Origin: Erythrobacter sp.
Lineage (GTDB): Bacteria > Pseudomonadota > Alphaproteobacteria > Sphingomonadales > Sphingomonadaceae
Assembly: GCA_963691825.1 (NCBI GenBank)
Contig: OY829379.1
Span: 1,472,215-1,536,214, forward strand
Length of the DNA stretch: 64,000 bases
Direction: 5' to 3'
Positions 28,048 through 37,312 of the stretch are shown in pieces. Every line of letters starts with the position of its first letter. Position 1 is the first letter of the stretch. The translations under genes and the position numbers were made by a program. Under the pieces are notes generated by a model that was not told where the DNA came from, made no database searches, and was given only the letters and a program-made list of their open reading frames with translations.

Positions 28048-28710
28048 TTACCAGCGGATCAGGGGCGGCGCGGCAAACCGCCAGAAAATCGCCCCGATAA
28101 AAGCCGGTGTCACATGCCAGAAGCCGATATGCAGAAGCGAATCGAGCGGGCAGGTGATGTTGTAAGCCAACGCGCCAAGCGCGCCGCTCGACAGACCGAT
28201 CAGCCAGCCCGCCCGTTCAAGCGAGACCGGCGCCCCGCGGCGCAAATGCCAAATCCCGGCCAATGCAATCACCGAAGAGGCGGCCAATCCGCGCGCGGCG
28301 CATTTCCAATAGAGCAGGCCCGGATCATCCATGCCCATTCCATGGTCATGCCCGGCCTCGATCGAAATGAGGGTGATCATCGCTGCGATGGGTAGGACCG
28401 CCAGGATTGCAGTGCTCCATTGCGAGGCGGAGGTGCGTTGCCCAATACGCGGATTGGCGCTGGCGACGAGCGCGGCGGTGCTGGCGACGCCCACAACGCC
28501 CAGCAGGCCGTTGCTGATCCAGTAAAAGGGTGATGCTTCGCCGGTCAAAGCGCCAAACCAAAAACCATAATACACAACGCAGGCAATTCCTGCTGCCAGT
28601 GTCGCACATACGATCATTGCGGCCCCGTCGCGCGGCCTCACCCGCCTAACCGGTGTCATATCAGCCGTTAGGGCGGCGATAAGATCATCTCGGGATTGGT
28701 GTTTTTCCAT
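28048..28710 (-). CDS. nrsF: NrsF-type (DUF1109) membrane anti-sigma factor
   Basis: DDLIAALTADMTPVRR N-terminus, six TM segments, conserved periplasmic Cys (WKCAARG, ITCPLDS) and HIGFWH; directly follows the ECF sigma. Confidence 0.88.
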   Translation of the reverse strand: MEKHQSRDDLIAALTADMTPVRRVRPRDGAAMIVCATLAAGIACVVYYGFWFGALTGEASPFYWISNGLLGVVGVASTAALVASANPRIGQRTSASQWSTAILAVLPIAAMITLISIEAGHDHGMGMDDPGLLYWKCAARGLAASSVIALAGIWHLRRGAPVSLERAGWLIGLSSGALGALAYNITCPLDSLLHIGFWHVTPAFIGAIFWRFAAPPLIRW

Positions 28711-28712
28711 TT

Positions 28713-29243
28713 CTACTGTTCTTCCTCGACCAAGGTGGCCAGTTTCTTCAGGCCACGATGGATATTCACTTTAACAAGACTTTCACTCTGCCCAGTTTTC
28801 TCGGCAGCTTCACGAATCGACAAGCCACTGATTTTGACCAATTCGATCACTTGGGATTGTTTGTGTGGCAATTGTTTGAACAAGCGATCGAGGCTGACGC
28901 GTGACATCACGACTTCTTCGTCACTGTCCTCAACCGCGTCGCCTTCAAGCAGTTCCTTGCTCTCATGTTTATAAACTTTGCGCAGGTGGTCGACCCAGCG
29001 ATAGCGCGCGATTGCGGCCATCCATGGCAAAAACGGGCGCGCCGGATCCCAGCTTGCTCGCTTGGTGTAAAGCGCAATCAGCACCTCCTGCACCAGATCA
29101 TCAATGGCGTGCGGGGGGATGCGCCGTTTGAAATAGCGTTCAAGCCAAACGCCCGCCTCTGCCAGCAACACATTGGCGGCGGCTTTATCGCCGTCCTGTG
29201 TTGCCATCATGAGGCGGGCGAAGGTTGGCTCGTCAGCGACCAT
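28713..29243 (-). CDS. sigF: ECF16 / SigF-type RNA polymerase sigma factor
   Basis: LMMATQDGD, DLVQEVL, WDPARPFLPWMAAIARYRWVD and LVKVNIHRGLKKL; paired with nrsF. Confidence 0.92.
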   Translation of the reverse strand: MVADEPTFARLMMATQDGDKAAANVLLAEAGVWLERYFKRRIPPHAIDDLVQEVLIALYTKRASWDPARPFLPWMAAIARYRWVDHLRKVYKHESKELLEGDAVEDSDEEVVMSRVSLDRLFKQLPHKQSQVIELVKISGLSIREAAEKTGQSESLVKVNIHRGLKKLATLVEEEQ

Positions 29244-29256
29244 ATCCCTACCTCGA

Positions 29257-29730
29257 TCAGGCCTCCGTACGCGCGCTCAGGCGGCTCAAGATGTGATCGA
29301 CGCTCAAGACGCCGGGGCCGCGGCTGATGATGATGCCAGCCATAGCCAGCACGGTGATGTCCCAGCCGAAGAAATGCGCCCAAGTGGGGAATACAAAAAT
29401 CTGGATCACCAATGCCATCACCGCAAGGCCGGCCGCAGCAAAGCGGCTAAACAGGCCAACAATCAGCAGGATCGGCAAAAGAAATTCTGCATAGACCGTC
29501 ATGGGCACCGCCAGATCAGGCGCGATTGGCAGGCCTGTAAATTCATTGGCGAAGATGACGTATTGGGTCGGATCGATTTGCAGCCATGTGCCATCGATCA
29601 CCTTGGTTTCATAGGAGCGCCAGAAGATCAGACCCAATGCAATGCGGGTGAGCAACAAAGCGACGCTTTCGATTGCAGTGCCCGACAAAATGCCGGTGAT
29701 CCGCGACCAGAGTGATTGAAGCGCTTCCAT
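29257..29730 (-). CDS. DoxX-family membrane protein (bufferin BufD-like)
   Basis: LLTRIALGLIFWRS, YAEFLLPILLIVGLFSR and GPGVLSVD. Confidence 0.9.
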   Translation of the reverse strand: MEALQSLWSRITGILSGTAIESVALLLTRIALGLIFWRSYETKVIDGTWLQIDPTQYVIFANEFTGLPIAPDLAVPMTVYAEFLLPILLIVGLFSRFAAAGLAVMALVIQIFVFPTWAHFFGWDITVLAMAGIIISRGPGVLSVDHILSRLSARTEA

Positions 29731-29905
29731 TATGTCCTCCGTTGGAATGTGGACGTTTGGCTTTTACCTGATGGGCCAAACGGATGAATTGGATTCTGGC
29801 CGCTTGCTCACTCTTCTCATCGCTCGTGTAAATAAGGCCAGTGTGGCCCAAGCGGGATAGGAAAAGCAAGCAAGCAGACCGGATGGGTTGGTTTGCCCCG
29901 GCCGA

Positions 29906-30187
29906 TTAGCGGTCGATCGGGGTTAGCGAACCTTTGCCCTTGGGGGTTTCGATACTGGTGCAGGTCCCCTTGTCGACATAGGTCCAGGCATTGCCTTGAT
30001 AGTCGCGGGTTGAAGTGCCAGCGCAGCTTGTACCCGGACCAGCGGCGCAATCATTTTCGCCAGCAAGCGAGACGCCGTAACATTTCTCTTTGGCACCTTG
30101 CGCAGCAGCAGGCGCGGTCGCAAGACCAGCGGTGACGCCAGCGCTCAAAGCGAGACCGGCAAGCGAAGCGATAGATCTGGTATTCAT
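29906..30187 (-). CDS. DUF2282 / BufA1-type bufferin precursor peptide (93 aa)
   Basis: Signal peptide ending AAA; core [26 protein letters not shown]...[11 protein letters not shown] with four Cys; SD GGAGA. True start is 30187, not 30493. Confidence 0.92.
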
Positions 30188-30257
30188 AGTTTCTCTCCAA
30201 AAAACCGTGTGCAAGTAAGCGTCCCGCAGCACGGCGTGCTCGTGGGACCGCACAGGT

Positions 30258-30283
30258 TTCGCGGCGGCGGAGCGAATGGTTAC
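30258..30283 (-). promoter_or_regulatory. SigmaF-type promoter driving precursor-doxX-sigF-nrsF
   Basis: Minus strand GTAACC (30283-30278), 16 nt, CGAA (30261-30258); exact match to the Caulobacter sigmaF consensus. Confidence 0.85.
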
Positions 30284-30319
30284 ACACAGAATGCAAAACA
30301 TCATTTTGCATTCTGTGTG
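30283..30319. repeat. Perfect 16-bp inverted repeat CACACAGAATGCAAAA-CATCA-TTTTGCATTCTGTGTG
   Basis: Read directly; lies between the two divergent -35 elements. Confidence 0.95.
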
Positions 30320-30343
30320 GCGGCGATCAGCGCAGCATTTTAT

Positions 30344-30369
30344 GTAACCACGCAGCGCGCGCGCACGAA
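30344..30369 (+). promoter_or_regulatory. SigmaF-type promoter driving MNIO-DUF2063
   Basis: GTAACC (30344-30349), 16 nt, CGAA (30366-30369). Confidence 0.85.
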
Positions 30370-30431
30370 TTATGAGATAGGTGCACACACACCTGTCCCG
30401 TGCGATCCATTTGTCTGCTAGTGGAGATGTT

Positions 30432-31301
30432 ATGACGACGCCGCGCGAACCGATCCCCCCTTTTGGAGGCTTTGGCCTTGGCCTGCGCCGCACCCATTAT
30501 GACGATTTTCTCAGCGGCCATGTGGCGGTCGATTTCGTTGAAGTGATCAGCGAAAATTACATGATCGAAGGTGGGCGACAGCTGCGCATTCTGGAACAGG
30601 TGCGGGCCAGCTTGCCGGTCATTGCGCATGGTGTTTCGATGTCGATCGGGTCGGCTGGCGGGCTTGATCGCGATCACCTTGCACGGCTCAAAATCCTCGA
30701 GCAACGGATCGATCCGCTGTTTGTGTCGGATCATTTGTGCTGGACCAGGACGAGCGCGCACAATTCGCACGATTTGTTGCCCATGCCTCTGACGCGCGAC
30801 GCGCTGGATGTGGTGTGCGACAATATTGACGAGGCGCAAAATGCTCTGGGGCGGGCCATGCTGTTCGAAAACCCGTCGAGCTATCTCACTTTCCCCGAAG
30901 ACGAGATGACCGAATGGGAATTCCTGAGCCAGATGGCACAGCGCAGTGGATGCTATCTGCTGCTCGATGTGAACAATATTTATGTGTCATCGCGCAATCA
31001 CGGTTTTTGCGCCGATGATTATCTTGCTGGCCTGCCGCTGGACCGGGTGCGCCAGATCCATCTAGCAGGCCATGATCCGGCCACGCCTGAACGCGATATT
31101 ATCATTGATACACATGACCGCGCGGTCGCCGATCCGGTGTGGGAATTGTACGCCAAGGCGATGGCCATGTTGCCGCAACCGGTCGCAACCATGATCGAAC
31201 GCGATGAGGATATCCCGGCAATTGGCGTGCTGCTCGATGAGTTGGACCATGCGCGCAATATCGCTGGCGGTGCGGGGCACAAGGCGCTCGAACCGGCATG
31301 A
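30432..31301 (+). CDS. MNIO / DUF692 multinuclear non-heme iron oxidase (BufB-like)
   Basis: [53 protein letters not shown] and IERD; SD GGAG before the ATG at 30432. Confidence 0.95.
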
Positions 31302-32137
31302 CCAAACGTTCTGAAGGCACCTCAGCCAAGCCGCCCCGCGCCGACCTTGCTCAGCGACAGCAGGCCTTCTTGCAAGCGATCCATGACGATCGGGCGCCGC
31401 TGCCCTCGGGATGGGGCAATCGCCAGGCTGCGGGCATGGCGGTCTATCGCGGCAATTACCGCTCTGCATTGATGGCGGCTCTGGCTGATCTTTATGAGCG
31501 CACCGCGCTTTATGTTGGCGAAGAGGCGTTTCGGCGGGCCTCTATGCACCACATAATCACCCAGCCTCCCTCGGGCTGGACGATTGATGAGGCGGGGGCA
31601 GGCTTTGACAAAACCTGCGCGCAATTGTTTGGCGACAATCCCGAAGTGAGCGAGCTGGCTTGGTTGGAATGGACCATGCGCGAATTGGCCAGTGCGCCCG
31701 ACACGCTCGCTATGGCCCCGGCCGATTTTGCCGAGGCCGGGGCGCATTTCGGCGATGAGGAATGGGCCAATCTGCGTCTTGCCTTGCAACCGCGCGCTGC
31801 CGCAAGGTTGGTTGGGCATGATTGCGAAAAGCTGTGGCGCGCGCTTGATACAGCCAGCTCGAACGCGCCCGATCGGTCGCACGCCCGGCTCGCCTCTCCC
31901 CAAAGCTGTCTCGTCTGGCGCGAGGGGGAGCGTCCCACTTTCGTGATGGTCGAGGCGGATCATGCGGCGGCTTTTCATGCGGTTGCGGGGGGCGCGAATT
32001 ACGCCGAAATGATCGGCGCCTTATTGGGCGATGATCCGGACCCCGCGCCGCAATTGGTCGAACACGCCGCGATGCGGGCTGGCGCGATTTTGGGCCGCTG
32101 GCTGCAAGAGGGGCTGATTGTGGGGCTTAACCCCTGA
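31298..32137 (+). CDS. DUF2063 / BufC-HvfC-like MNIO partner protein
   Basis: GMAVYRGNYRSALMAALADLY and ELAWLEW; ATGA overlap with the MNIO gene. Confidence 0.9.
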   Translation: MTKRSEGTSAKPPRADLAQRQQAFLQAIHDDRAPLPSGWGNRQAAGMAVYRGNYRSALMAALADLYERTALYVGEEAFRRASMHHIITQPPSGWTIDEAGAGFDKTCAQLFGDNPEVSELAWLEWTMRELASAPDTLAMAPADFAEAGAHFGDEEWANLRLALQPRAAARLVGHDCEKLWRALDTASSNAPDRSHARLASPQSCLVWREGERPTFVMVEADHAAAFHAVAGGANYAEMIGALLGDDPDPAPQLVEHAAMRAGAILGRWLQEGLIVGLNP

Positions 32138-37230: not shown

Positions 37231-37257
37231 GGCGATCACGATATCGCCAAGAAGTCG

Positions 37258-37291
37258 TTTTATCAATGATTAAATTTTATCACTGATAAAA
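37258..37291. promoter_or_regulatory. Tandem 17-bp palindromic operators (TTTTATCA-N-TGATAAAA)
   Basis: 37275-37291 is a perfect palindrome; 37258-37274 has one mismatch; 28-61 nt upstream of the tetR start. Confidence 0.8.
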
Positions 37292-37312
37292 CTATCATTC
37301 GCAAGGCTGGGC

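Follow-up and report, generated by a model that had tools for sequence, protein, structure and literature searches.

The bufferin locus and its predicted promoters

The window (that is, the whole 64-kb stretch of DNA that was analysed) contains a bufferin gene cluster that is organised as two divergent units, bufA-doxX-sigF-nrsF running leftward and bufB-bufC running rightward, each headed by its own predicted sigmaF-type promoter (Table 1). Both promoters were recognised as matches to GTAACC-N16-CGAA, which is the sigmaF-binding sequence of Caulobacter as defined by 5'-RACE and promoter deletions (PMC3511200). There are just two exact matches to this motif in 64 kb, where 0.04 would be expected, and they flank the palindrome with which this report is mainly concerned. 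The genetic context is what one would look for in a pair of sigmaF-dependent promoters, in that the motif lies upstream of the genes and the cognate sigF-nrsF pair sits together with bufferin genes at the locus.

Table 1. Genes, predicted promoters and palindrome components of the bufferin locus (window coordinates)
Feature	Position	Strand	Details and basis
nrsF, anti-sigma factor	28048..28710	-	PF06532, E 1.7e-31
ECF sigma factor (sigF-like)	28713..29243	-	Pfam Sigma70_ECF
doxX (bufD-like)	29257..29730	-	Pfam DoxX
bufA, DUF2282 bufferin precursor, 93 aa	29906..30187	-	PF10048, E 1.5e-24
PbufA, predicted sigmaF-type promoter, GTAACC-N16-CGAA	30258..30283	-	-35 box 30283-30278, -10 box 30261-30258; motif match
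Palindrome, left arm	30283..30298	.	CACACAGAATGCAAAA; sequence and repeat finder
Palindrome, left arm, inner part			TGCAAAAC; matches block common to closest relatives
Conserved A/T block (+11..+15), putative UP-like element	30294..30298	-	79-90% A/T in 58 loci
Palindrome, loop	30299..30303	.	CATCA, 5 nt; symmetry centre 30301
Palindrome, right arm	30304..30319	.	TTTTGCATTCTGTGTG; sequence and repeat finder
PbufB, predicted sigmaF-type promoter, GTAACC-N16-CGAA	30344..30369	+	-35 box 30344-30349, -10 box 30366-30369; motif match
bufB, MbnB/TglH/ChrH-family (DUF692, MNIO) enzyme	30432..31301	+	PF05114, E 3.7e-103
bufC, DUF2063 partner protein	31298..32137	+	Pfam; role from PMC11626156

The closest known systems are those of Caulobacter crescentus, in which PCC3254/buf1 and PsigF carry the same GTAACC-N16-CGAA motif (Kohler et al. 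2012, PMC3511200). The buf operons of Caulobacter, which PMC11626156 describes as copper-induced members of the SigF regulon, likewise bring together DUF2282, MNIO, DUF2063 and DoxX genes beside sigF-nrsF. Unlike in Caulobacter, however, the cluster described here is split into two divergent units with a promoter each, and sigF-nrsF lie downstream of bufA-doxX. A palindrome between the promoters is not mentioned for Caulobacter in the accessible parts of these two sources (PMC3511200, PMC11626156).

Inspection of the open reading frames and their Pfam matches uncovered no regulator genes at the locus besides sigF and nrsF. BufC was entertained as a binder of the palindrome owing to the Pfam description of DUF2063 as a "putative DNA-binding domain", but this candidate was set aside since, according to PMC11626156, BufC is the partner needed by the MNIO enzyme for precursor modification and has an RRE-like C-terminal domain.

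The leaders of both units show minor features of their own. That of bufA contains, at 30210-30228 on the minus strand, a weak hairpin with a T-run behind it, which immediately precedes the ribosome-binding site and has a terminator-scan score close to chance. That of bufB contains a (CA)4-5 run (30384-30392) within a 5-bp dyad, AGGTG...CACCT, and the outer ends of the palindrome arms consist of the same CA/TG dinucleotide repeat; such local low complexity could favour slippage or mispairing. Further down the bufB leader, about 10-20 nt before the start codon, lies a CTGCTA-N-GGA(G) motif (30415-30426) that is common to at least 23 of 59 congeneric loci and is probably an extended ribosome-binding context, a 5'-UTR regulatory element being the less favoured alternative.

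A perfect palindrome in the divergent spacer

The sequence-only reading had singled out a perfect 16-bp inverted repeat around CATCA between the two promoters, and both the sequence and a repeat finder bear this out, returning a 37-bp element (30283-30319) with 16-nt arms that pair at 16/16 positions (100% complementary). The coordinates of the promoter matches agree equally well with the geometry that it had proposed, base 30283 being common to the left arm and the leftward -35 box, and 24 nt (30320-30343) separating the right arm from the rightward -35 box. It was also right to place the element upstream of both promoters and to deny it the role of a terminator. A promoter scan found no sigma-70-like promoter able to transcribe the palindrome, and the palindrome lacks the hallmarks of intrinsic terminators, with 38% GC, no T-run beyond either arm, a position upstream of both genes and no hit in the terminator scan. 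Likewise, an Rfam scan of 29700-30900 gave no relevant match to a structured RNA family. The palindrome as a terminator, sRNA or riboswitch was rejected on the strength of these terminator and Rfam scans.

The palindrome is well beyond chance. Against the background of this genome (3.18 Mb, 59% GC), the analytic expectation is 0.01 per genome for perfect repeats whose arms measure 16 nt or more and whose loop is 0-10 nt, and six first-order Markov genomes together yielded a single such repeat (arms of at least 16 nt, loop of at most 10 nt). In the real genome, 13 perfect repeats reach an arm length of 14 nt or more, and 11 of them have 45-76% GC and, in most cases, terminator-like A/T-run flanks; the two that are AT-rich are the bufferin-spacer palindrome (38% GC) and a repeat in uppS (35% GC). 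The palindrome is therefore dissimilar to the GC-rich terminator hairpins that make up the bulk of the long perfect repeats in the genome. Folded as single-stranded DNA, each of its strands forms a hairpin of -18.1 kcal/mol (z = -7 versus shuffles).

Nor does the palindrome recur. Exact copies of the arm 16-mer in the 64-kb window are limited to the two arms, and there is no second copy in the 3.18-Mb genome with up to one mismatch. Nothing similar was found in the viral contigs and plasmids that were searched, and with a single copy in the genome and no viral or plasmid match, a REP/MITE-like repetitive element was rejected. The 19-bp core, TGCAAAA-N5-TTTTGCA, is unique in its own genome at 0 mismatches. 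At up to two mismatches it has seven sites versus three for a reversed control, and the two sites with one mismatch are unconvincing, since a long ORF contains one of them and the other has unremarkable intergenic surroundings. None of the nine other GAATGCAAAA sites in the genome is paired with an inverted copy at a similar spacing, and what comes closest to such a pair is a short 6-bp everted repeat at 2342077.

Beyond this genome, the exact core occurs in 4 of 211 other congeners, never at the buf locus; its surroundings differ each time, being the region upstream of dnaA in one genome, a ribosome-binding site in another, the sequence after pdxJ in a third and a small contig in the fourth. 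The GTDB representatives contributed 10 exact matches to the core, which belong to unrelated phyla and mostly to AT-rich taxa (Ruminococcus, Prevotella and others). There is no sign of a regulon or of a multi-copy element for the palindrome. The congener with the 7-5-7 core just upstream of dnaA (L203:1501-1519, genome G134) probably presents us with AT-rich origin or promoter sequence that is unrelated to bufferin.

Related loci and a conserved A/T block

Because blastn of the intergenic DNA against 60 related genomes gave no match, the comparison with relatives was anchored on proteins. BufB orthologues were found in 81 of 120 sampled congeners, and 27 loci, plus 31 more, were retrieved with enough flank, all of which have nrsF-sigF-doxX-bufA facing bufB-bufC as here. 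Wherever the spacer is recognisable, a GTAAC[CG]-N16-CGAA promoter lies on both sides, invariably preceded by T, so that the -35 box is actually TGTAAC. The distance from one -35 hexamer to the other varies between 20 and 115 nt (median 51) and is 60 nt in this genome. The divergent layout, complete with both promoters, was seen in 57/57 congeneric loci in which both promoters served as anchors, as well as in about 12 metagenomic relatives with a BufB identity of 77-85%, whereas metagenomic relatives with a BufB identity of 72% or less are co-linear, with bufA directly upstream of bufB on the same strand (L089-L110 versus L100-L109). The split divergent layout thus appears to be limited to close relatives, with a BufB identity of at least about 77%.

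None of these approximately 70 related loci (57 congeneric and about 12 metagenomic) has the palindrome. Since all of the anchored congeners have the layout and both promoters and none has the palindrome, the layout appears to be the older of the two and the palindrome lineage-specific. When 81 upstream regions, including this one, were surveyed for inverted repeats with perfect arms and a loop of at most 10 nt, the longest arms measured 4-7 nt in 77 cases, 8-9 nt in three and 16 nt here alone; the lengths in relatives are about what chance would produce in sequences that long, and no dyad at a fixed position was found among these regions. The sequence-only reading had proposed to look for conservation in orthologous spacers and had counted restriction of the repeat to one strain, coupled with unchanged expression on scrambling, against itself. 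The search bore out the first of these, the other 80 upstream regions being devoid of perfect repeats longer than 9 bp, and the repeat is specific to the strain or species as far as the available genomes allow. An exact look-up of BufA found no genomes of the same species in the collections searched, and the nearest relatives reach at most 81% DNA identity in uppS (congeners) or 85% protein identity in BufB (metagenome scan).

What the relatives do share is a short A/T block next to the bufA promoter. When 58 loci are aligned by the -35 box of bufA, 57/58 have A immediately outside the hexamer, and positions +11 to +15 beyond the box are A or T (mostly A, then T) in 79, 83, 84, 79 and 90% of the loci, as compared with 29-64% at the neighbouring positions. 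An A/T run of at least 5 nt is found within the first 25 nt beyond the box in 51 of the 58. In this genome, an A-run at 30295-30298 occupies +12 to +15, which means that the A-run of the left arm falls on the conserved block, and the closest relatives (by identity over five proteins) have G(C/G)AAAAA(C) at the block, matching the inner left arm.

If transcription starts about 7 nt after CGAA, this block would lie at about -43 to -48. UP elements, which are A/T-rich sites for the alpha subunit C-terminal domains (alpha-CTD) at about -40 to -60, as in rrnB P1, contact these domains around -43 to -48 and are also known for E. coli sigmaE promoters. Set at a constant distance on the upstream side of the bufA -35 box, the block may, judging by position and composition, be a UP-like upstream element of the bufA promoter. 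The likeness to UP elements extends to its being kept in 58 loci while the surrounding sequence is not; unlike in elements of the rrnB P1 type, the sigma factor here is of the ECF type and the putative element forms part of a perfect 37-bp palindrome. Two further candidate sigmaF-type promoters of the genome have an A/T block at about the same distance. In 12 loci with a spacer of 20-24 nt, the block is nearly all that separates the -35 boxes and often consists of an A-run followed by a T-run, so that short dyad symmetry arises naturally and no operator is needed to account for it. There is no comparably conserved block upstream of PbufB among the anchored loci, and the right arm, at about -57 to -72 of PbufB, is too distant to be an upstream element of that promoter.

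Origin and possible roles of the palindrome

The reading that we favour, and to which we give an even chance of being correct, is that this is a lineage-specific palindrome made by hairpin-templated copying around the A/T block, with no regulator of its own. The inner left arm would be the local version of the conserved A/T block of the sigmaF-dependent bufA promoter. From a short seed dyad within it, hairpin-templated copying of the neighbouring 10-12 nt would have produced the longer repeat, through a copying error (template switch or quasi-palindrome correction) that would have written the complement of 12-16 nt beside the -35 box onto the other side of the block. Both promoters would then be under the control of SigF/NrsF alone, the left arm acting only as an upstream (alpha-CTD-type) element of bufA and the right arm being a passenger mirror copy with neither a function nor a regulator of its own. 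The palindrome, its uniqueness and the conserved promoters and A/T block are observed; that the block works as a UP element, that a template switch made the palindrome and that no protein binds it are parts of this scenario that we infer.

Several features of the spacers point to such an origin. No relative has an equivalent of the outer left arm, CACACAGAAT, and nearly the whole right arm is likewise unmatched. The one thing resembling the right arm in related spacers is a short TTTTGC in a single species (L034), which has only GCAAAA-AC-TTTTGC, with 6-bp arms, at the same place, while another relative (L025) has 10-bp arms with one mismatch around the A-run. The dyad centres in these two vary (+15.5 and +21, as compared with +18 here), and short off-register seeds of this sort form the pattern of an extended seed dyad, not that of a positioned operator. 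Perfect symmetry over 16 bp exceeds what proteins need for recognition and is typical of copying events such as quasi-palindrome mutagenesis, in which template switching turns imperfect repeats into perfect ones (Ripley model; E. coli lacZ QP reporters). Like the products of these mutations, the bufferin palindrome is perfect, species-specific and placed at a short dyad; template switching would here be recognised from its outcome alone, the nearest congeners being about 80% identical even in uppS. Two counterpoints deserve consideration, which are that (i) a neutral perfect palindrome should decay, so that its perfection would speak of either youth or maintenance, and (ii) the palindrome touches a -35 box at a regulatory hotspot where operators are common.

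The second of these counterpoints leads to an alternative that we find rather doubtful, but no more than that, namely that a lineage-specific dimeric regulator, encoded elsewhere, uses the palindrome as its operator. The centre of this operator would lie some 50 nt upstream of the predicted start of PbufA and some 75 nt upstream of that of PbufB, and a protein bound there would touch the bufA -35 box and exert a second layer of control, for example as a metal-responsive repressor, over SigF/NrsF. The sequence-only reading had offered an operator as its first option, and the part that holds is the presence in a promoter region of a perfect dyad, well beyond what chance would give, that adjoins a -35 box and has a co-regulated promoter on either side. 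Further marks of an operator were sought and not found. The other 80 upstream regions lack the palindrome as well as any fixed-position dyad, the genome contains no second site or half-site family, the core has no recurrent orthologous context in the 211 congeners, there is no adjacent regulator gene except sigF/nrsF, and arms of 16 bp are longer than typical half-sites. To our knowledge, the palindrome bears no resemblance to Fur, Zur, Irr, CueR, CsoR, CopY, ArsR, LexA or sigma-54 (-24/-12) motifs. An instructive comparison comes from an operator-like pair upstream of a TetR gene in the same window (37257-37292), where palindromes of about 18 bp provide dyad symmetry in a promoter region much as the bufferin palindrome does; these palindromes, however, are imperfect (89%) and adjoin a regulator gene, whereas the bufferin palindrome is perfect and has neither an adjacent regulator nor a second site. 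A role as a supercoil-sensitive cruciform between divergent polymerases is, in our view, improbable. Negative supercoiling would extrude the AT-centred palindrome, which would absorb about 3.5 turns and distort the bufA -35 box and its upstream element, thus coupling or limiting both promoters. The geometry is right, in that the 16-bp arms are perfect (about 10-13 bp or more being called for), the loop has 5 nt, the centre is AT-rich and each strand folds into a stable hairpin. In arm length, loop size and AT-rich centre the palindrome resembles the cruciform-forming ColE1 inverted repeat (13-bp arms, 5-nt loop), geometry being all that is compared here between ColE1 and a chromosomal promoter spacer. 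The twin-domain model also predicts negative supercoiling between divergent promoters, which is the zone of the palindrome. Against this, related loci keep spacers of 20-115 nt without a palindrome, so the system does not need one, and repeats this short seldom extrude in vivo at physiological superhelicity. Taken more broadly, the notion that the palindrome is a functional second control layer, be it a lineage-specific operator that occludes the bufA -35 box or a cruciform that couples both promoters, strikes us as unlikely.

The two remaining explanations concern origin. The sequence-only reading had also suggested that the palindrome is the scar of an inverted promoter duplication that made the divergent bufA/bufB layout, pointing out that the same 16-mer reads toward a GTAACC on each strand. 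As an account of the layout this is barely credible, for the layout and both promoters are present in every anchored congeneric locus, none of which has the palindrome, and co-linear layouts are confined to the more distant relatives. Besides, the promoters are not part of the repeat, the symmetry ending at the left -35 box and 24 nt short of the right one, and the N16 spacers of PbufA and PbufB agree at only 6/16 positions (read by eye from the motif matches). The notion of a local inverted copy survives as the best origin for the palindrome itself. Pure coincidence, neither selected nor templated, is very improbable given the expectation of about 0.01 per genome, which is lower still for an AT-rich arm at 59% GC, and given that perfect arms in related spacers span just 4-9 bp. 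The argument in favour of coincidence is the uppS repeat, whose perfection on a 16/5/16 plan is explained by coding constraints and a few synonymous choices.

This second AT-rich perfect repeat lies outside the window, inside uppS (G000:C1:60057-60093, L169:458-494), where it codes for DLMNLMRKFIKS. The corresponding stretch of 29 congeners is quasi-palindromic, with 9-15 of 16 pairs, and its symmetry is largely imposed by the peptide and made perfect in this genome through synonymous choices. As a quasi-palindrome that occurs throughout the genus and is forced by the protein, it was rejected as evidence that some general process makes palindromes; what it demonstrates is that a repeat of this kind need not be an operator.

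If the favoured reading of hairpin-templated copying is true, the palindrome itself would matter little, other than as an example of how perfect palindromes may arise at A/T-rich promoter blocks and as a caution against taking every promoter palindrome for an operator. If instead the palindrome binds a protein or extrudes, it would represent recently evolved extra control on a copper-defence peptide system, and as operator or cruciform it would have been added in recent evolution to a switch that is otherwise conserved and ECF-only. The more useful outcome is comparative, since the bufferin cluster of this genus is always split into two divergent sigmaF-driven units, whose spacer between -35 boxes can shrink to 20 nt and conserves nothing but an A/T block, set at a constant distance from the -35 box of bufA. 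This pattern offers a simple model of how ECF promoters might share an upstream element or use one in both directions.

Finally, five more matches to T-GTAAC[CG]-N16-CGAA were noticed outside the window, at G000:C1:850240(+), 2834134(-), 2004784(-), 2968735(-) and 1340006(+). They sit just upstream of start codons with Shine-Dalgarno-like sequences, two of them have an A/T block as far from the -35 box as that of bufA, and all five are candidate additional members of the SigF regulon.
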